Part shown: positions 7,079 through 57,985 of the stretch, piece by piece
How the letters are laid out: each line of letters opens with the position of its first letter
How positions within the stretch are numbered: position 1 is the first letter of the stretch
From: Minisyncoccota bacterium
GTDB taxonomy: Bacteria > Patescibacteriota > Minisyncoccia > Phycocordibacterales > PALSA-1337
NCBI GenBank assembly: GCA_041663145.1
Contig: JBAZRG010000001.1
Span: 254,984 to 318,983, forward strand
Direction of reading: 5' to 3'
DNA length: 64,000 bases
Notes under the pieces: model-generated
Database searches by the model: none
What the model was told of the DNA's origin: nothing
Seen by the model: only the letters and a program-made list of their open reading frames with translations
Position numbers and translations under genes: made by a program

Positions 7079-7453
7079 TTATTTGTCGTTAATTCTGCGT
7101 AGATAGAATGAAGCGCCATGATGCTTAATATCAGCACGTCCACGGACAGCATCTATGACTTTGCGACTGTGTGGATTTGCCAATGCTTTATCTTTACCTT
7201 CGACATATATCTTACGTATGCGTAGTAAAACATGAAAGGCCAACCACTGAGCTAGGGTAATGAAAGTTTTTCTATTGAGATATGCTATAGCTCGACGGAC
7301 CCCACTAAAAAGTTTATGGAAAGCATGGTCAGTACCTTTTCCTAGTCTAGCAACCAAACTGGGTCGTCCAGACTTTATCTCACGTCTCTTTAAGAGAATC
7401 ATAAGAATGATTCCGATCAAAGATATGTAAAATATTGTAATGATGCTGTACAT
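7079..7453 (-). CDS. hypothetical protein with N-terminal transmembrane helix
   Basis: 124 aa; basic, single N-terminal TM; no family recognised. Confidence 0.35.
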   Translation of the reverse strand: MYSIITIFYISLIGIILMILLKRREIKSGRPSLVARLGKGTDHAFHKLFSGVRRAIAYLNRKTFITLAQWLAFHVLLRIRKIYVEGKDKALANPHSRKVIDAVRGRADIKHHGASFYLRRINDK

Positions 7454-7471
7454 ATTCTTTTTTCTCCCAAA

Positions 7472-9694: not shown

Positions 9695-10012
9695 GAGTTA
9701 ATTTATCCGAAATTGAATAGATTTTTAATAGGATTTTATCGCCTATTGTTATGCTAATTGCGGTTATGAGTCGACATAACCCTTATGAACCTTATTGTCC
9801 CATAGTATGATGCACGCAACTTCCCCGGTTCGGAAGCCTAAGCCCTCCCGACCACGTGCTCCGAAAAAATAGCAAAACTAGTCGAGACAAATCAAACGAA
9901 GATCGTATATCACGAAAGCTGGCAGGCCTATCGTGCATATATGAAAATGTCATGCTCATTCCGACGTTAACACGGAAAGCATGACTTTTTCATTTGTATG
10001 AGAAGTTGATGT

Positions 10013-10049
10013 TGTGCCAAGGACCAGGATCGAAAGTTACCCCATCCCG
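10013..10049 (-). pseudogene. tRNA-Phe 3'-half fragment (partial duplicate of the adjacent tRNA-Phe)
   Basis: 22 nt identical to the 3' acceptor/T-arm of tRNA-Phe (TGTGCCAAGGACCAGGATCGAA on the plus strand), followed by a degenerate anticodon-stem copy; lies about 35 nt from the intact gene. Confidence 0.5.
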
Positions 10050-10084
10050 CAAGAATCGCAACTATGTGATTTCTAATAATGCTG

Positions 10085-10157
10085 TGCCAAGGACCAGGAT
10101 CGAACTGGTGACCCTTCCCTCTTCAGGGGAATGCTCTACCAACTGAGCTACCTTGGC
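10085..10157 (-). tRNA. tRNA-Phe (anticodon GAA)
   Basis: GCCAAGG acceptor, anticodon loop CTGAAGA, T-arm ACCAG-TTCGATC-CTGGT; no encoded CCA. Confidence 0.85.
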
Positions 10158-10468: not shown

Positions 10469-10540
10469 CGCCCCCGTAGTTCAATGGATAGAACAGTTCC
10501 GTCCTAAGGAATAGATGTAGGTTCGATTCCTACCGAGGGC
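10469..10540 (+). tRNA. tRNA-Arg (anticodon CCU)
   Basis: D-arm GTTC-AATGGATA-GAAC, anticodon loop GTCCTAA, T-arm GTAGG-TTCGATT-CCTAC; one C-A mismatch in the acceptor stem. Confidence 0.6.
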
Positions 10541-10581
10541 ACTACTTCGCAACCCTGTAACGCACAGGGTTGCTTCGTAGT
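10541..10581 (+). terminator. tRNA trailer hairpin (CTACTTCGCAA-hairpin motif shared with the tRNA-Gly trailer)
   Basis: GCAACCCTGT-aacgc-ACAGGGTTGC 10 bp stem immediately 3' of tRNA-Arg; no clear U-run. Confidence 0.35.
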
Positions 10582-10657
10582 GCGAGGCACCTTGTAATAT
10601 ACCCTTTAGTGTTATATAATGATTGGGTTAAAAAATCTTATCAATTAACAAAGATCT

Positions 10658-13571: not shown

Positions 13572-13740
13572 ACCCCCCCCCACCACACCTTAATTTGTTT
13601 TCCTCGAACTCTACTCACAATATACCAACATTTTCACAAAGGACTCTCTACAGGGATTCGCGAGTCCTTTGGAAAATGTGTTGGTATATTGTTTCGCAGA
13701 TTATTCTCGGAATACAAATTAAGATGTGGTGGGGGGGTTA
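13572..13740. repeat. about 170 bp nested imperfect palindrome with 27 bp terminal inverted repeats (poly-C / poly-G ends)
   Basis: AACCCCCCCCCACCACACCTTAATTTGT ... ACAAATTAAGATGTGGTGGGGGGGTT; internal perfect 22 bp IR (CCAACATTTTCACAAAGGACTC/GAGTCCTTTGGAAAATGTGTTGG). Confidence 0.7.
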
Positions 13741-15347: not shown

Positions 15348-15698
15348 GCACGCACCAATTTGCACTAGCTCGCGTTAACCTAAAATACTCCCAATACTAC
15401 ACTGTTGGAGGAGTTTCGGGTGTTGTCGGCTGTGTTGGAGCCGTATTTGGCTGTTTTGCCATGTTATTAAAAGCGGGTTGATTAGCTCCCGCACAGTCGC
15501 GCCTAATTGCGCAACGGAGATGATTATATCATCGGGTCAATATGATCCAGCTTTGCCTCAGAAAATTGACATCTCGTCAAAACGATAGTCCAATTCTGGC
15601 TTCATTTCGTACTCCTACGGCATGATGTAATTTGTCTAAAAATTTCGACATGTCTATATGGTTCCAGTCAATAAATAACGATGGAATATTTATATATA

Positions 15699-15844
15699 GA
15701 CCCCAACATAATGTTCCCGCCACAATCCTGCGTAATCGCTTCTCAAATTACAGCCGTGTTTGGTTCCAGGGCTTCACCAAACACGGGTAATTTTTCGAAG
15801 CTCAATCGCAACTCGGATTGTTTCGGGAACATTATGTTGGGGTC
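15699..15844. mobile_element. MITE copy A (inverted relative to copies B and C)
   Basis: GACCCCAACATAATGTTCCCG 21 bp terminal inverted repeats; about 95% identical to the reverse complement of copies at 42332 and 57773. Confidence 0.8.
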
Positions 15845-15857
15845 TTACGATAACCAA

Positions 15858-18922: not shown

Positions 18923-19030
18923 ACTATAGCATATGCATGAGTGGGTTGTCAATACTTTGACGATTCCGTCAAATATGTGCCATGGTATGGCTCTGTTAAG
19001 ACACTCTGTAAACCACGGTCGTGATTCGCC
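18923..19030 (-). repeat. R1: conserved ~105 nt promoter/operator module (copy 1 of 3)
   Basis: On minus strand TTGACA-18-TGnTATAGT; upstream palindrome TTTGACGATTCCGTCAAA; about 90% identical to R2 and R3. Confidence 0.6.
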
Positions 19031-19058
19031 TACTACCAATTATATTTACCATACGCAG

Positions 19059-19634: not shown

Positions 19635-19745
19635 TGACTTATCCTTTCTTTGGTTTGTTTTGGTTAAATCTAGCTCTCAAAAGACAAATTTCTACCTTTT
19701 CGGAGCTAGACTTAGCCGTTCTCAATGACCTGATCTTCTGTAATA

Positions 19746-19849
19746 AGTATAGCATTTCTAACACTATTTGTCAATACTTTGACGATTTCGTCAAATACAT
19801 GCGGTATGGCTCTGTTAAGACACTCTGTAAACCACGGTCGTGATTCGCC
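19746..19849 (-). repeat. R2: conserved promoter/operator module (copy 2 of 3)
   Basis: TTGACA-17-TGcTATACT on minus strand; perfect palindrome TTTGACGATTTCGTCAAA. Confidence 0.6.
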
Positions 19850-19871
19850 TCCTCTCCACATTCTCAATTAT

Positions 19872-20458: not shown

Positions 20459-20510
20459 CCCGCACTACTTCGCAATTTGTCCTTTTAGACAAATTGCGAA
20501 GTAGTGCGGG
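20459..20510. repeat. perfect 23 bp-stem hairpin; its right arm plus TGCGGGT duplicates the tRNA-Gly trailer/3' end (DR-left)
   Basis: CCCGCACTACTTCGCAATTTGTC-ctttta-GACAAATTGCGAAGTAGTGCGGG; 39 nt (20473-20511) identical to 21933-21971. Confidence 0.8.
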
Positions 20511-21246: not shown

Positions 21247-21406
21247 CCTTTCTTCACCTGATAGGTGACGAAATTCGTGCTGCCCGCACGTTGAGGGTGC
21301 CAGAGGACTAACACGTCAGTGTGTTTCGTCATAGCAGAGAATGGCCCAAACGAGCCGCTTTCTGCTATGACGAATGTAAGTAATTTCAATGACCTATACT
21401 GCTACA

Positions 21407-21513
21407 AGTATAGCATTTTTAACACTACTTGTCAATTCTTTGACGATTTCGTCAAATGTGTGTCGCCATAGGGCTCTGTTAAGCCACCTTGTAAACCACG
21501 GTCGTTATTCGCC
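21407..21513 (-). repeat. R3: conserved promoter/operator module (copy 3 of 3)
   Basis: TTGACA-17-TGcTATACT; TTTGACGATTTCGTCAAA palindrome. Confidence 0.6.
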
Positions 21514-21587
21514 CCCACTCGACTATCTTTGGAGGTTAGTTCCTTCTTCGCTCTTCGCAAAGCTCGGAGCTACGAAGGACAAGCACC

Positions 21588-21827
21588 TCAAACTAACCTC
21601 TTTCTGCTAAAAGCAAAGCCAGATCCTTTCTTCAAGTATTTTTCAAACTGTAAAGCTTTTGTTTTGTTATTAAAACAGCAGTACCACGATAGTTGCACAG
21701 GTCTTCTATCTTTTGTTGAATCAACTAATCCTTTGTTGTGATAACTTATTCGATTCTTCAGATTATCGGAAGAACCAACATAATAGGAGTTATCATGACA
21801 TTTAAGAATGTAAACGAAATGTGACAT
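21588..21827 (-). CDS. GIY-YIG nuclease superfamily protein (UPF0213/YhbQ-like)
   Basis: 79 aa; FVYILKC...YYVGSS...NRISYHNKG GIY-YIG signature. Confidence 0.8.
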   Translation of the reverse strand: MSHFVYILKCHDNSYYVGSSDNLKNRISYHNKGLVDSTKDRRPVQLSWYCCFNNKTKALQFEKYLKKGSGFAFSRKRLV

Positions 21828-21964
21828 ATTAAAATATTAACAGATCGTGTCCTTCTACGCTAAAGCTTCGAAGGACTACTTCGCAATTTTTATAATAATC
21901 TTCGTGATACTCATTGTGCCTGCACTTCGAAGCAATTTGTCCTTTTAGACAAATTGCGAAGTAG

Positions 21965-22035
21965 TGCGGGTAGCGAGAATCGAACTCGCGTCTCAACCTT
22001 GGGAAGGTCGCATTCTGCCACTAAACCATACCCGC
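21965..22035 (-). tRNA. tRNA-Gly (anticodon CCC)
   Basis: GCGGGTA acceptor, anticodon loop TTCCCAA, T-arm CGCGAG-TTCGATT-CTCGC; followed by conserved trailer hairpin. Confidence 0.8.
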
Positions 22036-22439
22036 TAAAAACCAAATTTTTGAATCAGAGAACTCCACCAACCAATATCTGCTCCGATGTTGGATTGCAA
22101 ACTCGACGTTGATGATACGGATGATCCATCCGACTCAGATCGATCCACGATAACTGCCACAGATTCCCCATCTTTTACGGCACGATACCTGGTGCGCAAC
22201 TCTGACTCTATTCCCATTTCAGTCGAGAGATATGAGACTCGATAACTGAGATCAGACCTTCTCTCTTCCAATTTATCTATCTCCTGTCGAGCCAGAGCCA
22301 GTCTTTCTTCACTAATATTATTTTTTGCATTCATACTCCAGGTCGCTTTTGCCAGAATACCAACCAGAACAACCAATACCACAACGAATATTGGTGAGGA
22401 ACGTATCTTGACCCAAACTGAACGTTTGCCGTATTTCAT
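22035..22439 (-). CDS. FtsB/DivIC-like septum formation initiator (TM + coiled coil)
   Basis: 134 aa; N-terminal TM then heptad-rich segment, Ser-rich tail. Confidence 0.45.
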   Translation of the reverse strand: MKYGKRSVWVKIRSSPIFVVVLVVLVGILAKATWSMNAKNNISEERLALARQEIDKLEERRSDLSYRVSYLSTEMGIESELRTRYRAVKDGESVAVIVDRSESDGSSVSSTSSLQSNIGADIGWWSSLIQKFGF

Positions 22440-32077: not shown

Positions 32078-32516
32078 TATTGTCATACCATAAGCCGAAT
32101 TCTGTGTCAGTCATAGAACTCAATCGAGTCCTTGTGACCTTAACAACCATTTATCTTGTCCGACACTTGCGTGCCGGATCTAGCGGTTCTTCCTTCCAAC
32201 TTTTACTTGCGCAGAAGTTGAGAGGACACGACCTTGCACCGAGGTAAGGATTTTGCCGTTGCACCCCACGCGTTACCGCGCGGACTGATCCTAACAAATT
32301 GTGAGGATCCATGATTCATTTCCAAATCATGCGTCTCTGTTCGCACCTCTGGGCGTTACCCTGACGGGCGTTACCTCATAACACCGTAAGGTGTCATGAT
32401 TCCGATATAAATCGGAACGCTACCCTGCTATCATCGCTTTCGCGATGCCGGTGTTCGGACTTTCCTCATCTTGCAAAGCCCGAAAGCTTCACAAAACGTA
32501 GTTGTTTGGTACAACG
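32078..32516 (-). ncRNA. rnpB: RNase P RNA (bacterial type), ends approximate
   Basis: Minus strand carries GAGGAAAGTCCGAACACC (CR-I), ...CAGGGTAACGCCCAG..., GCGAACAGAGACGC, and the 3' ACACAGAATTCGGCTTATGG (P4 ACAGAAYCCGGCUUA homolog); 670 bp region without ORFs. Confidence 0.85.
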
Positions 32517-32522
32517 GTGGTA

Positions 32523-32581: not shown

Positions 32582-32739
32582 TAGGAGCTTAGTGAACATT
32601 GTTCCTCATCTCCTCGCAAGGTCACCCACTCCAAATTGCAACCACATATCAGCAGATGGAACTACTGATATGTGGGCAATTTGTTCGGGGTTCGAATCGC
32701 ATTGCGAGTCGTTTCGGAACAATATTCACTAAGCTCCTA
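32582..32739 (+). ncRNA. S-element copy 1: extended hairpin with conserved 12 nt loop and T-loop-like motif (candidate structured RNA, strand uncertain)
   Basis: Outer 24 bp IR, conserved internal sequences, inner 11 bp stem, loop CAGATGGAACTA; covaries with copy at 50960-51117. Confidence 0.5.
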
Positions 32740-32816: not shown

Positions 32817-35137
32817 TTACACAATTTCGCAAACTCCTGACACACACGCCAACTCTTTCTTCAGATCCGTCTCGTTTTGTTTTTCGTAAGTTATAATCTT
32901 CGAATAATCCACATGTTCCAAGCGCTTTGCAAGCTCTTTATATTTCTTTTCATCTATAGACTCATACGGAGCCAGCTTATAGACAGCATCCTCGCGTGGC
33001 AAGAATGACAGACCTCCGCAGATATCCCAATTTTCATAGACCCAGTTTGCAACCGCTATCCATTCATCATTACCTATAGAGATAGTGACTGAAGGATTGT
33101 GTTCTGTATAATTTTCCTTGACCATTTTCCAATACTCCAACTGCTGCAATGCTGTCTGATCATCTCGAAAGACCGAACCAGCTGGTGCTTTGACTGGAAA
33201 CTCTAGAACGTAGGTATTGGCGGACTCGGGTGATTGGCCAACCTCCGGGTTATAAGGTACACCTTGATCTTTGAGCATTTTGAATAACGAATCGGTCGAT
33301 GAGATCCTGATGCGACGAATATAGAACTTGGAGTGTCTCGGGTGCATACCTGAAGAACAATCAACAGTTTGTGACAAGGTTCCGGACGGTTTTACACAAG
33401 TTATAGCAGTTGATTCCCCTATTCCAAAACGTTTTGCATACTCTTTATTTATTCGTATTGCCTCAGCTTTTAGTCTACGCATGACCTCTGGCTTACGGAC
33501 AGCTGGACTATCCCACTGACCAGTGATAGATACTCCGAGCAATCTTTCACGTTCACAATGATCTTTCCATTCTTTGGACAAATACTGGAAATTTGTAAGA
33601 GATGACTGATACGTACCGAGAATGGTCGCGATTCGCATCTTCTTCATGAGAGTAGCTTCGGTATCTTCGGCTCGAGCCACGATCTCGGACAGATTACAGA
33701 ACTGTTTTGATTGAAGAATAATCTCACCACACGGATTTGTACCGATAGGTCCGATGATATGTTGACCAGTCGAATCGAAATAGCCCTTGTATTCTTTCAA
33801 AACTTTTATGCGCCTCTCTGGAAGAGTTTTTGCCAATGAACCGCGATTGAATATCCCACGTTCACCAGACCTACTCTCGACAAGTGCCATCCATTCCTTC
33901 AAAAATTCTTCATTTGTCGGCTTGTTGATATATACAGCGGAATTGTTAGCGAGCATTCTGTGAGGATGAGTCATGTAGAAAGCACCCTTCTTTGCATCAC
34001 GAATGAGTTCATCGCCGAGATCAGACAAAGAAATCATGGCGCTTCGTCTCACACCGCCAGCCACCACACAATCTCCGATCATACAGATGATATCGTGCAG
34101 ATCGAGCGGGCGTAGACGTTTACCTTGGCGAGCCAACATGATTTGTCTCGTAAATGACAGAAGTCGAATAAGAGGTGCCGGACCAGATGATTTGCCACCC
34201 ATAACTTTGAGACGCGCGCCTTCAGGGCGTAATTGGGAGAAATCAAAATCGATGTCACTGCCGGAAGCCCAGGTCTTCATACCTAGGACAAGCGAATTTG
34301 CCCATCCTTCTTTGCTATCTGGAACAACGTGTACAGGAAGTTTATCGCCATTTTGCATCATAATCTGCGGAAACTTCTCGACATTGGCACTTTCGACTGC
34401 CCAACCGCAACCTGTACCATTCATAGAGATATGAATGATCTCACCGAGATCTTGGAATGATTCTGGAGCGATAAAAGAACAGTTATATGCACAAATATTG
34501 TCTCTACGTGCTGGAGTGCCAGCAAACTGTAAGAGTCTCATCGACGGCATGGCCTGGTGATTTAGGATAGCTTCTCTAATCTCTTTGTATTCGCTTTCTT
34601 TGAGCTTATTGCCGAGATTCTCCTTCATGAAAGTGAGATACCGATCGACAGTCTCTATCCATGTCTCACGACGATTTTCAGAATCTATCCAGCGAGCATA
34701 AGAACGATAGTAAACGAACTCACCTAAAGCATTTCTAAAATATTTTTTGGAATCAGTAGCGAGCTTGCGAACATTTTCCGGAACTTCAAAACCTACAGAA
34801 CGCAGTTTTGCTCGTTCTTCACGATAAATAACGTAGTGTTTGGCGGCTTTGACATAGTCAGAGCGCATTAGCTCGGCCTCAACTATATCCTGAACACCTT
34901 CAACTGTAGGGATGAAGTTAGAAAATTTTCTTTTGATCCTAGTAAGCTCATTTTGAACCTGAGTTGCAACAACTCCAGCCTCTTCGATGGATCCTTCATT
35001 GACCGCGTTCATGCCCTTCCAGATGGCATTTGTGATTTTGGCAAGATCGAATGGAACGATTCGACCGTCTCTTTTGATAATCGTGGGGATTGAAACAACC
35101 TTACCCGCGGTTGTGGCGGATTTTTTCTTCTTTGGCA
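32817..35137 (-). CDS. ribonucleotide reductase, large catalytic protein with N-terminal ATP-cone (probably adenosylcobalamin-dependent class II)
   Basis: NPCGEI active-site motif, ATP-cone (VPFDLAKI...), C-terminal Cys pairs, no adjacent NrdB; start placed at ATG giving MPKKKK (the ORF track starts at an upstream TTG). Confidence 0.8.
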
Positions 35138-35330
35138 TATGTGTGCGTAGGCGGCTACGCAAGTGCTAATGTCTTATAATTTTTCGATCAATTTAACTGC
35201 TATTTAATTTCATTGTACAACCTATGACACTCTCCAACAATAAATTATCCTGTGGATAGTGACTTTCGTCACAATTTTTTCAGTTTGTCTGTAATGAAAA
35301 ATAATAATTATGGATAAATTGAGTTTTTGA

Positions 35331-39901: not shown

Positions 39902-39927
39902 TGTCCACTTTATGGGGTACGGATCAA
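39902..39927 (+). repeat. direct repeat DR-L of GC-rich mini-island (TGTCCACTTTATGGGGTACGGATCAA)
   Basis: 25/26 identical to 42028-42053. Confidence 0.75.
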
Positions 39928-40042: not shown

Positions 40043-40435
40043 TTATGTAGACAGCTCCCCAGGTTCGAACTTGCTCTCATACTGAGGACGAATCCAAATC
40101 GAAGGGACGAGTGTGTCAATGCGGTTTCTCGAAAGAAATTCAACGAAGCTGTGGCGAATTTCAACGAGTGCTGCAGCCTTTTCATCTTCACCAGGGTTGA
40201 AAGGTTTTCCTGTGCCGTATTCGTCTTCACCGGCAGTGTATAGGACCTCGATCTGTACGGGTGCCTCATTGGCCGTGTACCGTACATCGAAGACGTCGAA
40301 TGCGACATCCTCCTTCCCTTCGATACCGAATATGGCTTCGACCGTGGCAATAAGGCTTCGAGACAAATCATCGAATGTCTCATCGATGATCATGTTCGCA
40401 GCCAAACGGTTGAGGTATACCTTGATCTGTGGCAT
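40043..40435 (-). CDS. tautomerase-family-like small acidic protein (GC-rich)
   Basis: 131 aa from Met175 of the ORF; MPQIKVYLNR... N-terminal Pro pattern; the upstream part of the 304-aa ORF is a Cys/His/Arg-rich GC artefact. Confidence 0.4.
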   Translation of the reverse strand: MPQIKVYLNRLAANMIIDETFDDLSRSLIATVEAIFGIEGKEDVAFDVFDVRYTANEAPVQIEVLYTAGEDEYGTGKPFNPGEDEKAAALVEIRHSFVEFLSRNRIDTLVPSIWIRPQYESKFEPGELST

Positions 40436-40461
40436 TACTGATTCCTTTCTTTGGTTGAGGG

Positions 40462-41073
40462 TTAAATCCAATCCATGACCGGCGACTTCTTGCGAAACCG
40501 ATAGACACAGAGTGGAACGGTTATGCAGAAACTCCCGACTGTCATGTAGATTGGCAAAATCAGATTCGCAAGCGTGAAATCGGAAATCGCAAAGAAGTTC
40601 AAGCTGTAGGCGACGGAGAAGAATCCCCACGCAAACGGCCTGTCTTGATCCGGCGACTTCCAAAGAAACGCTATGGTCGGAAGACATGCGAAGCTGTCGG
40701 CAACTATGGCTACATACAACGCGTATTGAACAAGGTCCTTGCTCTCCCTCATAAACAGCCACATCACTAAAGAAATGATGCCGAAGATAAGACAGACAAT
40801 ATCTAACTTGTTCAACTTTGTTCGCTCGTACTGCCGTTTGAAGGCAATAAGAGTGACAATGAGCGGATTCGTGAATCCGAACACCGCAGCCCAGACGTTT
40901 GCTTTTGCGCCGGAGCTTTTGTAAGTCAGGAGCAATGCGAGACCTATGAAAGTCCACAAACTCCAGCTCGTAATGTTCGGATGAACCTTCTTCTGGTAAG
41001 TCCGAATCGCGTAAGGTATTACACTTACAACGATCAGAATGCCGGAAATCAGTCCGATTAATTCTTTGTCCAA
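40462..41073 (-). CDS. hypothetical 6-TM membrane protein
   Basis: 203 aa; six hydrophobic helices. Confidence 0.45.
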   Translation of the reverse strand: MDKELIGLISGILIVVSVIPYAIRTYQKKVHPNITSWSLWTFIGLALLLTYKSSGAKANVWAAVFGFTNPLIVTLIAFKRQYERTKLNKLDIVCLIFGIISLVMWLFMRESKDLVQYALYVAIVADSFACLPTIAFLWKSPDQDRPFAWGFFSVAYSLNFFAISDFTLANLILPIYMTVGSFCITVPLCVYRFRKKSPVMDWI

Positions 41074-41208: not shown

Positions 41209-41880
41209 TCAGTTTGCCCGCACAATGGTATAGGGGTAATAACCAATTGTTGAATCAGTACCCCATGCTTCCAGGGTGCAGTCTCGCAGGGTAGCATTAT
41301 CGCCGAAATAGAGACAGCGATATTCTTTCTGCATCCCCAGATGGGTCGAATATGGTCCCCAAACGGGAAACTTTCCCTTGAAGACAAACAATACGCCACT
41401 GTCGCCGAGTCTCGTAGGACCATTCGTTGAAACAAGCCGTTCAACCTCTTGCTTCAGGAATGCCAGCGTCTCATCGTCGGTTGCAGTCTTGTACCACTCG
41501 AAGTTGGTCGTCGTGATATCAATCCTGATAAGGACCCTGTTGAAGTTTTCCACGAAGACCATTTGAAGAGGCCGCCCACGGAAGTTTCCGTAGGTGATGA
41601 TCGTGTCATCTCCATCGTGTGCAATGCCGTGTTGAAAAACAGCCGGAGGCATCTGGGGGACATTCGGTCCTTTGACACGATTGAATGCTTCCGAACTACT
41701 TGAGGTGTCCTCGAGCTGAGGCGGCCAGTGCAATTTTTCCAGAGCAACGTATCTCCGTTCCGATGCGGCCAATTGCCTCTCAAGCGAGTCGGCTCGATTT
41801 TTAAATGAGAGTGCGGCACCCAATGACACCGCGATTGCTGCAACGAATGCTATGACTACCAATTTTTGTGTCGTCTTCAT
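41209..41880 (-). CDS. hypothetical secreted protein (GC-rich)
   Basis: 224 aa from Met27; N-terminal signal/TM (MKTTQKLVVIAFVAAIAVSLGAALS). Confidence 0.45.
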   Translation of the reverse strand: MKTTQKLVVIAFVAAIAVSLGAALSFKNRADSLERQLAASERRYVALEKLHWPPQLEDTSSSSEAFNRVKGPNVPQMPPAVFQHGIAHDGDDTIITYGNFRGRPLQMVFVENFNRVLIRIDITTTNFEWYKTATDDETLAFLKQEVERLVSTNGPTRLGDSGVLFVFKGKFPVWGPYSTHLGMQKEYRCLYFGDNATLRDCTLEAWGTDSTIGYYPYTIVRAN

Positions 41881-42027
41881 AACAATGTACTGAGTACTGA
41901 TTTTGTCCGAACCTCCCCTTTTCGAGGGTACTAAACGGACATTTGTTGAGGTATTCAAATCTGGCGGTATTGTAACAAATTACGTAATGAAAGTCAACCT
42001 CTGTCCAATTTACAGCTTGGAAATCTG

Positions 42028-42053
42028 TGTCCACTTTATGGGGTACAGATCAA
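42028..42053 (+). repeat. direct repeat DR-R of GC-rich mini-island
   Basis: TGTCCACTTTATGGGGTACAGATCAA. Confidence 0.75.
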
Positions 42054-42331: not shown

Positions 42332-42504
42332 AGACCCCAACATAATGTTCCCGAAACAATCCGAGTTGCGATTGAGCTTCGAAAAATTACCCGTGTTTGG
42401 TGAAGCCTTGGAACCAAACACGGTTGTAATTTGAGAAGCGATTACGCGATCGAGCACGATCGCCTACTGGGGAGGATTGTGGCGGGAACATTATGTTGGG
42501 GGTC
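42332..42504. mobile_element. MITE copy B (with 26 nt internal palindromic insertion)
   Basis: Same TIRs GACCCCAACATAATGTTCCCG / CGGGAACATTATGTTGGGGGTC. Confidence 0.8.
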
Positions 42505-48946: not shown

Positions 48947-50950
48947 ATGCAAAATCAAAAACCCTATAACAATAGACCAAATAATAATTTCACGAGACGT
49001 CCTTTGCCACAACCGCAGACACGCATCATGCACAACGACAATCCATCAGTAAAACCGGCAACAGTGACACCGACGCCAAGAGTCGGCATAGACAATGGCA
49101 ACGGACACAGGATAGTTCTCGGCAAAGGTGCCCGTAAGCATCCCGAAGCATTGCGACATATAGCTGGCGCTCGTATGAACGTTATTCGCAAAGAATCACG
49201 ACCAATGAAAAGAGGTGGTCCTTCACGCCCTCTTACCCATCACAAAGGCGAAGATGTCATTCCAGTTTTGGCGCCAAATTCGATCCGAATAGTACCATTG
49301 GGCGGAGTCGAGGAGATCGGACGCAATATGACAGCAGTCGAATTTGGAGATGATATCATCGTCATCGATATCGGCTTTCAATTTCGTGATGAAAATACTC
49401 CTGGTATAGATTACATCCTGCCAAATACGAAATATCTCGAAGAACGCCAAAACAAAGTTCGAGCGGTTTTGGTCACTCACGGACACCTAGACCACATCGG
49501 AGGTATACCTTATATCATGCCTCGAATCGGAAATCCGCCACTCTACACTCGCATGCTCACGTCAGTATTGATCCAAAAAAGACAGGAGGAGTTTCCACAT
49601 GTTCCCAAACTCGATATTCGAGTCATAGAAAAAAATGAAACCATAACTGTCGGTAAACTCAAAGTCAAATTCTTCGCAGTAACCCACACCATACCGGATG
49701 CTATGGGAATCATCATCGAGACTCCTTACGGTTCGATAGTTCATACGGGAGACTTGAAACTAGATCATATGGACGGCATCGTCGATCCTGTCGAAGAAGC
49801 CGAGTATGATCGGGCTTTCAAAAATGAAAAAGTACTACTTCTCATGGCTGATTCGACCAACGTTGAAAATCCAGGATTTTCGATACCGGAAAAAGTAGTT
49901 CACAAGAACATCGAAGAGATCATAAAGAACATGCAAGGACGGTTGATCATCGCCACATTCTCTTCCCTATTGGAAAGAATCTTGAAGATCATCGACTTTG
50001 CCGAAAAATACGGAAAGAAAGTAGTCGTCGAAGGACGAAGTATGAAAAATAACATCGAGATCTGCAAACATCTCGGTCTGCTCAAAGCCAAAAACGAGAC
50101 AATGATCACAACAGATGACATCGAAAATTTCCCGCCAGAACGCATAGTTATACTGGCAACCGGAGCCCAGGGAGATGAATTTGCCGCAATGATGCGTATG
50201 TCAAACAAAACTCACGCCAAGATCAGAATAACCCCACGCGATACGATCATGCTTTCTTCTTCGGTTATTCCAGGCAATGAAAGGGCCGTGCAAAAACTCA
50301 AAGACAATCTTTCGAGACAAGGAGCCAAGATCATTCATTATCGTATAGCAGACGTTCACTCATCCGGACATGCCAACCGCGACGAGACAGCCTGGATACA
50401 CAAAAAGATCCATCCGAAATTCTTCATCCCTTGCCACGGATATCACTACATGTTGCGTGTTCACGGCGAGATCGCCAAGGACGCCAATGGTCTCAAAGAA
50501 GAGGATATAATCATTCCAGACAATAGTTCCATAATTGAAATCCAAAATGACGGAGGCAAAATTGTTAAACTAAAAGAAAAAGCTGCGTCAGGACTGGTCT
50601 TAGTTGATGGATTTTCTGTCGGAGATGTCCAAGATGTCGTTATCCGAGATCGTCAAATGTTGGCGCAAGATGGTATATTTATAATATTCGGTATCGTCAA
50701 TGCAGAAAACGGTAGGCTGAAGAAATCTCCAGATATTATCTCTCGCGGTTTCGTCTATCTACGTGAATCTCAAGATCTTTTGCATGAAGTCCGTCTAATA
50801 ATCAAAGATACTGTGGACAAATCAACTCGCGGTCAAAATCCGATCAATGTTGATTTCGTAAAAGATGCAATCACCGATGCAGTCAGTAAATTCCTACTCC
50901 AAAAGACAGCAAAGAGGCCGATGGTTATTCCGGTTATTTTGACGATTTAA
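48947..50950 (+). CDS. rnj: ribonuclease J with about 100 aa low-complexity N-terminal extension
   Basis: 667 aa; HGHLDHIG metallo-beta-lactamase motif, beta-CASP and C-terminal domain. Confidence 0.9.
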   Translation: MQNQKPYNNRPNNNFTRRPLPQPQTRIMHNDNPSVKPATVTPTPRVGIDNGNGHRIVLGKGARKHPEALRHIAGARMNVIRKESRPMKRGGPSRPLTHHKGEDVIPVLAPNSIRIVPLGGVEEIGRNMTAVEFGDDIIVIDIGFQFRDENTPGIDYILPNTKYLEERQNKVRAVLVTHGHLDHIGGIPYIMPRIGNPPLYTRMLTSVLIQKRQEEFPHVPKLDIRVIEKNETITVGKLKVKFFAVTHTIPDAMGIIIETPYGSIVHTGDLKLDHMDGIVDPVEEAEYDRAFKNEKVLLLMADSTNVENPGFSIPEKVVHKNIEEIIKNMQGRLIIATFSSLLERILKIIDFAEKYGKKVVVEGRSMKNNIEICKHLGLLKAKNETMITTDDIENFPPERIVILATGAQGDEFAAMMRMSNKTHAKIRITPRDTIMLSSSVIPGNERAVQKLKDNLSRQGAKIIHYRIADVHSSGHANRDETAWIHKKIHPKFFIPCHGYHYMLRVHGEIAKDANGLKEEDIIIPDNSSIIEIQNDGGKIVKLKEKAASGLVLVDGFSVGDVQDVVIRDRQMLAQDGIFIIFGIVNAENGRLKKSPDIISRGFVYLRESQDLLHEVRLIIKDTVDKSTRGQNPINVDFVKDAITDAVSKFLLQKTAKRPMVIPVILTI

Positions 50951-50959
50951 TAATCTCTT

Positions 50960-51117
50960 GGAGAGCTCGGTGGATGTTGTGCTGACACAACCAGCAAGGT
51001 CACCCGCTCCAAATTGCAACCGTATTAGAGCAGATGGAACTACTCTAATACGGGCAATTTGTTCGGGGTTCAAATCGCATTGCAAGTCATGCAAAAACAG
51101 TATGTACCGAGCTCTTC
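50960..51117 (+). ncRNA. S-element copy 2 (candidate structured RNA, strand uncertain)
   Basis: Same conserved loop CAGATGGAACTA and conserved internal sequences as copy 1; inner stem CCGTATTAGAG/CTCTAATACGG; outer IR GGAGAGCTCGGT/ACCGAGCTCTTC. Confidence 0.5.
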
Positions 51118-51161: not shown

Positions 51162-52550
51162 TTACAATTGATCGATCATTGTTCGCTGAATGTTTTCGGC
51201 TTTAACCATCACACTATTGCCATAAAAAGCGTTTTTAGGAGCATTCCAATTTCCTCCAGCATAATATCGTAGTGCTGCCGTTCTCTCCGCAGTATATGTC
51301 TGTTTGGCGGCACCCAAATCCGTCAGATACATAGCCGAGGCCATAAAAGCATGTTCCGGGAACCAAGGGTTGGGCATACCTGATATTCCCAATAATTTCG
51401 CTACCCTATCTGCAACACTACTCACCCATGTCGATGGTATAAATTGAGCCGGTCCCATCGCTCCACCGTACCCACCAGTCGATAGAGGACAAGAGACGAG
51501 AGTTGCATAAGGATCGAGACCGAGCTCGTTGGTAATGGAAAGAAACGGTGCAACGTCTCTATCTGGCTTCATAACATTTGCTATTGGTGTTTTTGTGGTA
51601 ATTTTGATTCCAGCACCAGTGTCTTTATTTGCCAGATAACAAGAACCGACATATTTACCAAAAGTCGCATCTTTATCGAGACTTGATTCTTGAGCAAAAA
51701 TTGCCAAGAGAAATGCCGGTCGTATTCCTGTCCTCTTTTCGGCTTCAAGAGCATATTTGTACGCATCACCAAAAGGTATTTCAATAGCTCCAGCCAACTG
51801 GAACAGACTGGCCCTGATCATTGCCGCTTTGGCCTGTTTTTCAGCCAACAGCGTGGCATATGACTTTTCACTACCCTTACTCAAAGCCAAAAGTTTTTGT
51901 TTCTCTTTTTGATTTGCCGCTATGTTCTTTTGCTCCTGCTGTATCTCATATCTTGCGTCGATCTCGGCATTTCTTCGTTTATCAAGATCATTTTTTTCCG
52001 TAGTCGTTTCGTCCTGATCTGATCGCAATTGTTCGAAAGTACTTTTGAGTCCAGTTTGAACTGATTCGAAATAATCAATATCTTCGAAAAATTCAGACAA
52101 GTCCGATTGGGACAATAACATTTCCGGTACCGAATACTGATCCAACTCATTTGTCTTGCGCAATAAAACTGCCAAAGATTCTTTGCCTTTAGTGATTCGC
52201 ACCTCCAATTCATCGATGTGACTCTGTTTTTGATTTATGTCCTGACCAAGAGTCTGAATGCGCAGATTTTTTGCTTTGATATTGAGCTCGGCGGTCTTGA
52301 TTTTGGCGGTCAAAATAGCAATGTCTCGTGATAGTGAGGCACTTTGCCCCTTAGCAGTAGCTAGGTCTTTTTCAGCTTGTTTTTGTTCGGCCAGGACTTG
52401 TTCGAGAGCCTCTTCACAGGCAATCTTTTCAGCCGCAGTCTTACAGCTCATCGTTTCCGCATTTGAAATGTTGGCGAAAAATAAGGATGAAAAACAAACA
52501 ACCAGAAGCCCATACACGAGAAAGGTGGGCTTAAAGAAGTATTTCTTCAT
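51162..52550 (-). CDS. secreted coiled-coil protein with C-terminal lytic transglycosylase domain (MltB/family 3-like)
   Basis: Signal peptide from Met26; long coiled coil; GAMGPAQFIPSTW and AQESS motifs. Confidence 0.7.
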   Translation of the reverse strand: MKKYFFKPTFLVYGLLVVCFSSLFFANISNAETMSCKTAAEKIACEEALEQVLAEQKQAEKDLATAKGQSASLSRDIAILTAKIKTAELNIKAKNLRIQTLGQDINQKQSHIDELEVRITKGKESLAVLLRKTNELDQYSVPEMLLSQSDLSEFFEDIDYFESVQTGLKSTFEQLRSDQDETTTEKNDLDKRRNAEIDARYEIQQEQKNIAANQKEKQKLLALSKGSEKSYATLLAEKQAKAAMIRASLFQLAGAIEIPFGDAYKYALEAEKRTGIRPAFLLAIFAQESSLDKDATFGKYVGSCYLANKDTGAGIKITTKTPIANVMKPDRDVAPFLSITNELGLDPYATLVSCPLSTGGYGGAMGPAQFIPSTWVSSVADRVAKLLGISGMPNPWFPEHAFMASAMYLTDLGAAKQTYTAERTAALRYYAGGNWNAPKNAFYGNSVMVKAENIQRTMIDQL

Positions 52551-52628
52551 TGGATATACTGACATTATGATATTATAACCTATTTGGAGAATGGTTTGTG
52601 GCTTTTTGTGGCTTTTCCTGATCAACTA

Positions 52629-57696: not shown

Positions 57697-57772
57697 GACT
57701 GAGGATCAAAGTAAGCCCCTCACATCCTTATTTTGTATTCCGAGAATAATCTGCGGACTTTATGTCGTATTA

Positions 57773-57915
57773 CCCCCAACATAATGTTCCCGAAACAATC
57801 CGAGTTGCGATTGAGCTTCGAAAAATTACCCGTGTTTGGTGAAGCCTTGGAACCAAACACGGTTGTAATTTGAGAAGCGATTACGAGGATTGTGGCGGGA
57901 ACATTATGTTGGGGG
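57773..57915. mobile_element. MITE copy C (in the ftsZ upstream region)
   Basis: CCCCCAACATAATGTTCCCG ... CGGGAACATTATGTTGGGGG; flanked by TTA on both sides. Confidence 0.8.
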
Positions 57916-57985
57916 TTATACGATTATTTGATTTTACTTGTGTCTTCTAACTCCTGTGTTAATATACAACCTATCCAATACTTAT

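Follow-up and report, generated by a model that had tools for sequence, protein, structure and literature searches.

The genomes of bacteria in the candidate phyla radiation (CPR), or Patescibacteria, are very small and, by the usual account, contain little mobile DNA, and to our knowledge interspersed palindromic repeats resembling MITEs (miniature inverted-repeat transposable elements) have hardly been described in this phylum. IS200/IS605 elements, which have hairpin ends, and their PATE derivatives move by HUH/Y1 single-strand transposition, in which the enzyme reads a DNA hairpin with specific unpaired bases. [quoted passage not shown] The bcr1 repeats of the Bacillus cereus group, about 155 bp in length, have a distribution that is not conserved between related strains, and compensatory changes maintain their double-stranded structure (Delihas 2011, PMC3184786). 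The present study examined a 64,000-nucleotide (nt) stretch of the genome of a Minisyncoccota bacterium (assembly GCA_041663145.1, contig JBAZRG010000001.1, positions 254,984 to 318,983; hereafter the window), within which an earlier note had reported two copies of an extended hairpin and interpreted them as a functional noncoding RNA (ncRNA). We found that these copies belong to a larger family of dispersed hairpins, which is probably an undescribed family of 145–167-nt interspersed palindromic repeats in Paceibacteria, that is, non-autonomous MITE- or REPIN-like mobile DNA rather than an RNA gene.

The hairpin family and its subfamilies

The two starting copies, A1 (32582–32739) and A2 (50960–51117), each comprise 158 nt on the forward strand, with covariance-model scores of 115 and 111.9 bits, respectively. 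They align without gaps and in identical orientation across 158–166 nt, and the 27-nt and 32-nt blocks that they share occur exactly twice each in the window and not at all in shuffled sequences, even with three mismatches allowed; the positions and conserved blocks reported in the earlier note were thereby confirmed. In A1, a left outer arm (TAGGAGCTTAGTGAACATTGTTCC, 32582–32605) pairs with a right outer arm (GGAACAATATTCACTAAGCTCCTA, 32716–32739, forward strand), a single position being C/A on the forward strand and G-U on the reverse. Conserved block 1 (CAAGGTCACCCACTCCAAATTGCAACC, 32617–32643) provides the 5' side of an asymmetric internal loop and the 5' strand of helix P4; the apical hairpin (32642–32675) consists of a variable 11-bp stem (32642–32652 with 32665–32675) and a 12-nt loop (CAGATGGAACTA, 32653–32664); and conserved block 3 (GGGCAATTTGTTCGGGGTTCGAATCGCATTGCGAGTC, 32674–32710) provides the 3' strand of P4, the 3' side of the internal loop, a 7-nt bulge, and the 3' strand of P2. 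As previously described, the inner 11-bp stem is fully complementary in each copy (CCACATATCAG/CTGATATGTGG and CCGTATTAGAG/CTCTAATACGG, respectively) and is lengthened by pairing of CAAATTGC with GCAATTTG; 5 of its 9 variable pairs are changed between the two. The outer inverted repeats were likewise found to be complementary in both copies, but they are not unrelated in sequence: the alignment identifies the arms as homologous, with GAGCT/AGCTC in common and at least five compensatory double changes.

Both copies fold far more stably than shuffled sequences on the two strands (z = −9.7 and −12.3 for A1, −7.0 and −7.5 for A2). Substitutions between them are few in the blocks and apical loop (3/76) relative to the stems and junctions (41/82; Fisher p = 1.5e-11). 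Gene conversion between the copies was ruled out as an explanation for the conserved blocks, since these and the conserved loop are interleaved with diverged 9-bp stem halves. In a Logan contig from the same organism (L011, 6424–6515), A1 differs from the window at a single position, the first base of the apical loop (window 32653), which is C in the window and T in L011; the latter would give the A1 stem one extra A-T pair.

The earlier note implied that the hairpin was present in only two copies. The covariance-model search that it had proposed, which we performed on the window without filters using a model of the 94-nt core built from three cores (R1), recovered three additional full-length copies at E = 1e-8 to 1e-10 (core matches at 15728–15816 on the forward strand and at 42361–42449 and 57800–57888 on the reverse). 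These copies constitute subfamily B and were designated B1 (15698–15845, forward; 39 bits with R1 and 86 bits with R2), B2 (42335–42501, reverse; 91 bits with R2), and B3 (57765–57923, reverse; 86 bits with R2; 37-nt arms). They are nearly identical to one another over about 148–167 nt and have perfect 19-bp termini (CCCCAACATAATGTTCCCG/CGGGAACATTATGTTGGGG), and B2 and B3 are 100% identical over 112 nt. A 24-nt internal insertion in B2 (CCCCAGTAGGCGATCGTGCTCGAT) pairs with adjacent element sequence, forming its own 7-bp hairpin (GCGATCG/CGATCGC); outside of this insertion, B2 does not differ from B3. When subfamily B is compared with subfamily A, compensatory replacements are found in each of the helices P3, P4, and P5, and the asymmetric unpaired core is recognizably retained. 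A further 163-nt hairpin, C1 (13575–13737, strand unassigned), with 34-nt arms 95 nt apart, is tentatively included as probably a distant subfamily member of the same size and architecture; its core is a marginal covariance-model match (13611–13704, 18.9 bits, E = 0.005), and it has in common with subfamily B the junction ATTGTTTCG and C-run termini.

Members were also found outside of the window. A scan of a metagenome collection with a 21-mer from block 1 returned one contig only, which carries a truncated copy and originates from Hainich groundwater (L003). A longer contig of this locus (L010), reached through a neighboring protein, contains a full 145-nt, almost perfect hairpin that starts about 4 nt past a stop codon. 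Its block 1 is identical at 26/26 positions, its apical stem (CCATATTTTGA/TCAAAATATGG) is a third distinct complementary version, its P2 has GTAA/TTAC in place of GCAA/TTGC, its outer stem is perfect over about 33 bp, and its apical loop differs at 6/12 positions. Block 3 is changed to GCTCAAATC in L010, and the T-loop-like motif GTTCRAATC, which the earlier note had singled out, is therefore not conserved; the corresponding sequence is CTCA-ATC in subfamilies B and D. The 12-nt apical loop, also held to be conserved, is not so outside of A1 and A2. Subfamily D is represented by a member scoring 57 bits in the closest relative (L014, ribonucleotide reductase [RNR] 90% identical), which is cut by the contig end and is a fourth variant, combining a P4 like that of subfamily A and a loop like that of subfamily B with a new P3 (CCAT/ATGG) and a new apical stem. 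A scan of a genome-contig collection with a block-3 21-mer returned just two chance matches (in Abditibacterium and Verrucomicrobiota metagenome-assembled genomes), block 3 being a poor choice of query because it varies in L010, and four scans of a viral-contig collection (block 1, block 3, subfamily B terminus, subfamily B core) returned no matches. L014 also contains a 155-nt element downstream of murJ (7304–7458) with 29-nt inverted arms that are 90% complementary; this element has no covariance-model match, includes GGCTCAAAT as found in block 3 of L010, and may represent a further hairpin-repeat family.

The hairpins therefore form one family with several subfamilies, of which A, B, and probably C are present in the window and D in L014. 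The architecture common to them comprises a 19–37-bp outer inverted repeat, short P2 and P3 helices, P4 (AAATTRC/GYAATTT), and an 11-bp apical stem with an 11–12-nt loop, together with a conserved asymmetric internal-loop region (5' side ..TC.C..CTC.., 3' side ..TTCG..G.TC(R)AA.C.CA..) that is near-invariant within subfamily A and recognizable across subfamilies. Family members are about 145–167 nt in length, and the window holds five firm copies and one probable copy per 64 kb.

Pairing, gene context, and distribution

Covariation was assessed in an alignment of seven core sequences, which represent only about five independent lineages. In this alignment 95.5% of cells were paired, and double changes were present in 16/30 pairs versus at most 4 when the partner columns were slid; the observed values were reached by 0/500 shuffles. 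The covariation is genuine, and the earlier inference of an extended hairpin with compensatory changes in several helices was strengthened by the added copies. The pairing is almost exclusively of the Watson-Crick type: the 19 pairs of P4 and P5 are 100% Watson-Crick in all seven sequences, with no one-sided changes and no G-U pairs, and minimum-free-energy folds of the whole elements contain 0–4 G-U pairs among 50–64. If 5% G-U pairs were expected, their absence from 95 cells (about five lineages) would have a probability of about 0.008. Equal pairing on both strands without G-U pairs marks a DNA palindrome, or selection acting on two strands, and is not typical of an RNA selected on one strand. 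The core, for its part, persists across subfamilies although any process homogenizing the arms would tend to erase its asymmetry, and it is therefore under selection.

All six copies in the window are intergenic according to the map of open reading frames (ORFs) and the annotations, the sole ORF overlapping any element being a 66-amino-acid TTG ORF across A2. The annotations agreed with the gene context given in the earlier note, including the position of A2 between convergent genes. A1 lies between the stop codon (32817, reverse) of a class II RNR gene (32817–35162, reverse) and the promoter of a divergent RNase P RNA of bacterial class A (rnpB, 32104–32517, reverse), which scores 52.5 bits against an Rfam gathering score of 100 and is consequently missed at the default threshold. 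The rnpB promoter is sigma-70-like (TTGTCA-17-TATACT, 32551–32523, reverse); A1 ends 30 nt from its −35 box and 64 nt from the rnpB 5' end, which corrects the distance of 60 nt to the promoter given previously. In the relatives L012 and L014, rnpB is directly 3' of the RNR stop codon. A2 lies between the genes for RNase J (48947–50950, forward) and an SLT-like protein (51162–52625, reverse), which converge; it starts 9 nt past the stop codon of the former and ends 44 nt from that of the latter. B1 ends 12 nt from the stop of a histidine-phosphatase gene (15858, reverse), B2 is 16 nt downstream of an M48 peptidase stop and 110 nt upstream of tRNA-Ser, B3 lies between the stop of a YdjM-like gene (57696) and the start of the ftsZ ORF (57938), and C1 starts 13 nt past the stop of an MFS gene. 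A stop codon is within 12–16 nt of one end in 3/6 copies and within 9 nt in one, and every copy, L010 included, is downstream of at least one stop codon at a distance of about 4 to 77 nt. The copies are variously oriented with respect to local transcription, B2 and L010 being sense, A1 and B3 antisense, and A2 and B1, which are between convergent genes, ambiguous; the asymmetric core would therefore be transcribed as its reverse complement in about half of the copies.

The RNase J and RNR proteins of the window are 100% identical to those of a 'Candidatus Paceibacterota' metagenome-assembled genome, which identifies the host as a CPR bacterium, and the next relatives are 84–90% identical. Orthologous sites were compared in related genomes. 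The RNase J/SLT junction lacks the element in relatives with 82–86% RNase J identity, where it spans 9 nt (L004–L006) or 75 nt with a simple AT-rich hairpin (L007–L009), and the RNR/rnpB junction lacks it at 89–90% RNR identity, where it spans about 70 nt (L012) or about 20 nt (L014). No member is present downstream of the M48 peptidase gene in L017, and thus the orthologous sites were empty in 3/3 testable cases. The reciprocal situation was also found: the member in L014 lies in the interval from DUF192 to RNR, which in the window spans 168 nt and contains none. About 100 kb of other related loci contained no family member, leaving a patchy distribution over the window genome, L014, and L010/L003. 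Two Logan contigs break within elements, as is expected at repeats: L011 ends inside A1, exactly at the end of block 1, and L014 starts inside its own copy. At the flanks, TA borders A1 (TA|GGAGCT..AGCTCC|TA) and possibly C1, and nothing consistent was found at A2, L010, or B1–B3; the boundaries are fuzzy, and the intergenic DNA of the relatives is not alignable. L017 (RNR 87% identical) encodes a large serine recombinase with Resolvase, Recombinase, and Zn_ribbon_recom domains (21515–22325) about 9 kb from RNR; no hairpin element is near it, and so it shows no link to the family.

Competing explanations for the family

The multi-copy subfamilies, the identical and hence recently copied elements among them, the reciprocal presence and absence, the intergenic placement in either orientation, and the Watson-Crick-only palindromy together argue for mobile hairpin repeats. 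As in MITEs, the elements are 145–167 nt long and contain no transposase ORF, have terminal inverted repeats (arms of 24–38 nt that are 84–94% complementary in A1, B1–B3, and C1), occur in multiple dispersed copies, and are present or absent at orthologous sites. The copies would be produced by an enzyme encoded elsewhere in the genome, outside of the window, and this enzyme may recognize the conserved asymmetric core in a hairpin, possibly single-stranded, form of the DNA, with the helices needing only to pair. Such recognition would account for a core that is fixed and helices that drift through double changes from one Watson-Crick pair to another. These changes could reflect either selection among element lineages for the ability to fold or the correction of quasipalindromes by intrastrand template switching, a path to double changes that is free of selection (PMC7202029, PMC8604942).

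Several observations weigh against mobile DNA. No transposase, recombinase, HUH/Y1 enzyme, or reverse transcriptase was found in the 64-kb window or beside any copy (Pfam, NCBIfam, PHROGs), the ORFs neighboring the copies included no protein families indicative of transposition, and no autonomous element with matching ends was found in the window or in the related loci examined. The flanks gave no consistent sign of target-site duplication, TA being present at A1 and possibly C1 and not at A2, L010, or the B copies, and conservation is concentrated in the central asymmetric core and not at the termini, an uncommon arrangement among classical MITEs and REPINs. The contrast in substitution rates between A1 and A2 (3/76 versus 41/82) reflects long-term selection on the core, which a host function could also cause. 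Finally, A2 has 3–4 G-U pairs on the forward strand, which is read through from RNase J, and A1 has one on the reverse strand, which is read through from RNR, a weak hint of tolerance at the RNA level; and the lineages available for independent comparison number about five.

These last points bear on the interpretation first given to the hairpin, namely that it is a structured RNA with a function in the host: a cis- or trans-acting ncRNA module with a protein-binding or catalytic internal loop, helices selected as RNA, and copies marking regulated loci. The strong covariation in four helices is what such a module would produce, as is an unpaired core that barely varies from A1 to A2, against about 50% divergence in the stems, and that retains block 1 at 26/26 positions in a different organism, and the few wobbles are G-U on the expected read-through strand at A1 and A2. 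We nevertheless consider a host RNA unlikely. The copies are dispersed and of mixed orientation, so that about half would present the complement of the core in the transcript; the orthologous sites are empty and the closest relative has its member elsewhere; the pairing is Watson-Crick only; and neither the apical loop nor the supposed T-loop is conserved. A stand-alone small RNA should have its own promoter and a fixed orientation and position among relatives, neither of which was found: A1 and A2, the two copies scanned, have no promoter of their own, the sole promoter-like site being that of rnpB, and no U-tract terminator, and there is no T-run after the stems in the A1, A2, and L010 sequences. 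The elements match no Rfam family at the gathering threshold, in agreement with the novelty claimed in the earlier note, and at permissive E-values return just generic, sub-threshold microRNA-precursor hairpins. That note had itself named covariation of the kind shown by palindromic DNA repeats, identity with a MITE, or an Rfam match as grounds for abandoning the ncRNA interpretation; the first two are essentially, in kind, what we observed, and the third is not.

More specific RNA and guide systems were also considered and rejected. A tRNA-like or T-loop element was ruled out by detectors (ARAGORN and the Rfam tRNA model found only five true tRNAs in the window, none at the elements), by the missing complementary T-stem at the putative T-loop motif, and by the lack of conservation of this motif. 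A K-turn in the core was ruled out on inspection, since the required GA is not beside the C-stem and A2 has A for G. The variable stems have no match in the window beyond chance that would suggest a role as guides. A retron, integron attC site, diversity-generating retroelement, IS110 bridge RNA, or TIGR array was discounted, there being no reverse transcriptase, integrase, or recombinase gene (Pfam) and no tandem array nearby.

It is also quite improbable that the hairpins are orientation-independent terminators, insulators, or protectors of mRNA 3' ends that were recruited between the tightly packed genes of CPR bacteria and turn over rapidly. Every copy does have at least one stop codon about 4 to 77 nt upstream of it, the long hairpins are highly stable whichever strand is folded, and the RNase J/SLT spacer of a relative holds a simple AT-rich hairpin instead of the element. 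However, an intrinsic terminator is a GC-rich hairpin followed by a U-tract, and no U-tract follows the stem on either strand in the scans of A1 and A2 or in the L010 sequence; a terminator requires neither a conserved asymmetric 40-nt core nor a fixed length of about 160 nt; spacers of 9–20 nt suffice at the same junctions in relatives; and identical copies at unrelated loci indicate copying rather than local evolution. A role in termination or 3'-end stabilization could instead be a side effect of insertion near stop codons: if the repeats are mobile, read-through from neighboring genes would produce long RNA hairpins near mRNA 3' ends, and any effect as a terminator, stabilizer, or RNase target would be secondary. 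A dispersed DNA-level binding site or cruciform for a chromosomal protein involved in nucleoid organization, replication, or segregation, and palindromic as a duplex or cruciform, would account for Watson-Crick-only pairing that is symmetric on both strands and for orientation-independent, dispersed, intergenic copies, but it is highly improbable given that the element is absent from most related genomes and orthologous sites, that a symmetric duplex site has no need of an asymmetric core, and that recent identical copies and subfamilies better fit a replicating element.

We can also entertain, with little confidence, the idea that the core (block 1, block 3, and the 7-nt bulge) is the recognition module of an undescribed mobilization or RNA-binding system specific to Paceibacteria. 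In one form of this, the elements could be single-strand hairpin transposons of a new type, their enzyme reading the unpaired bases within helices that are otherwise free in sequence. In another, the repeat could have been domesticated, with a host factor binding or processing it as RNA; RNase J and YbeY are both encoded in the window, and the copies are at mRNA 3' ends. Were the latter form true, the family would serve as a post-transcriptional signal throughout the genome of an organism whose regulatory repertoire is minimal.

Repeat content of the window and described repeat systems

The window contains several other repeats. A second, short family of perfect 20–23-bp hairpins (CCCGCACTACTTCGCAATTTGTC / GACAAATTGCGAAGTAGTGCGGG) is present at 20459–20510, 21919–21970, 10539–10583, and 21875–21895; two of its copies abut the 3' ends of tRNA-Gly and tRNA-Arg, and it has GCAATTTGT/ACAAATTGC in common with P4 of the long element, such that it could be a REP-like relative of the long element or a set of tRNA terminators. 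A 26-nt direct repeat (TGTCCACTTTATGGGGTACGGATCAA, 96% identical; 39902–39927 and 42028–42053) flanks two ORFs without a family match (40043–40957 and 41209–41958) in a region between a RhuM-family gene and tRNA-Ser that adjoins B2 and possibly constitutes a small integrated island. A stretch of 26 nt from the 3' part of tRNA-Phe recurs 70 nt away (10009–10034 versus 10079–10104) and resembles an att-site remnant of integration. Intergenic repeats of about 60–100 nt with 62–90% identity (18946–19047, 19765–19866, and 21429–21530; also 19738–19796 with 21399–21457) precede small ORFs without a family match and are possibly promoters or leaders that were duplicated within a small set of paralogous genes.

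The hairpin repeats make up about 1.5% of the 64-kb stretch, and in light of this load, the coexistence of subfamilies, and the reciprocal insertion polymorphism, it appears that this lineage has active non-autonomous mobile elements. The family also offers a caution for ncRNA discovery, as a mobile DNA palindrome can give rise to covariation in multiple helices; three checks discriminate between the two, namely whether G-U pairs are absent, whether the copies are mixed in orientation, and whether the orthologous sites are empty. Such elements additionally break short-read assemblies, as seen in the two Logan contigs that end inside them. The conserved asymmetric core provides a handle for finding the enzyme or host factor that recognizes it and hence a lead to a mobilization system in CPR bacteria.

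No description of this element was found in the literature searched, and its resemblance to described repeats is one of kind. The classical MITEs (Correia/NEMIS, ERIC, RUP) are similarly shorter than 200 bp, have terminal inverted repeats and no transposase, form a long stem-loop, are intergenic, and show insertion polymorphism (PMC3184786, PMC10969869), whereas in the present family the termini differ between subfamilies and covary and are not the conserved part. The bcr1 repeats are alike in size, in their unconserved genomic distribution, and in their compensatory base-pair changes; they differ in having 5-bp direct terminal repeats and documented transcription, neither of which is established for this family, and they have no apparent sequence relationship to it, although no direct comparison was made. 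Like REPINs, the elements are short, non-coding, extragenic, and multi-copy, can form one long hairpin in single-stranded DNA or RNA, conserve length and pairing, and occur as coexisting subfamilies, with compensatory changes in 16/30 core pairs. REPINs, however, conserve two terminal REP 16-mers and vary in the central spacer, while this family has no such conserved terminal units, conserves a central asymmetric internal loop, and varies in its arms; its members are also longer (about 160 nt versus about 90–110 nt) and reside in Patescibacteria rather than Proteobacteria, and no Y1_Tnp match that would indicate a RAYT was found among the window ORFs. With regard to mechanism, an analogy can be drawn to the IS200/IS605 group, in which it is a hairpin with unpaired bases that is recognized, not a duplex terminal repeat, and target-site duplication is not obligatory; those elements have distinct left and right subterminal hairpins where this family has one element-long hairpin, and neither TnpA nor TnpB was found near the copies. 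The family is thus new, and its kind is a known one, that of the bacterial interspersed palindromic or MITE-like repeat.

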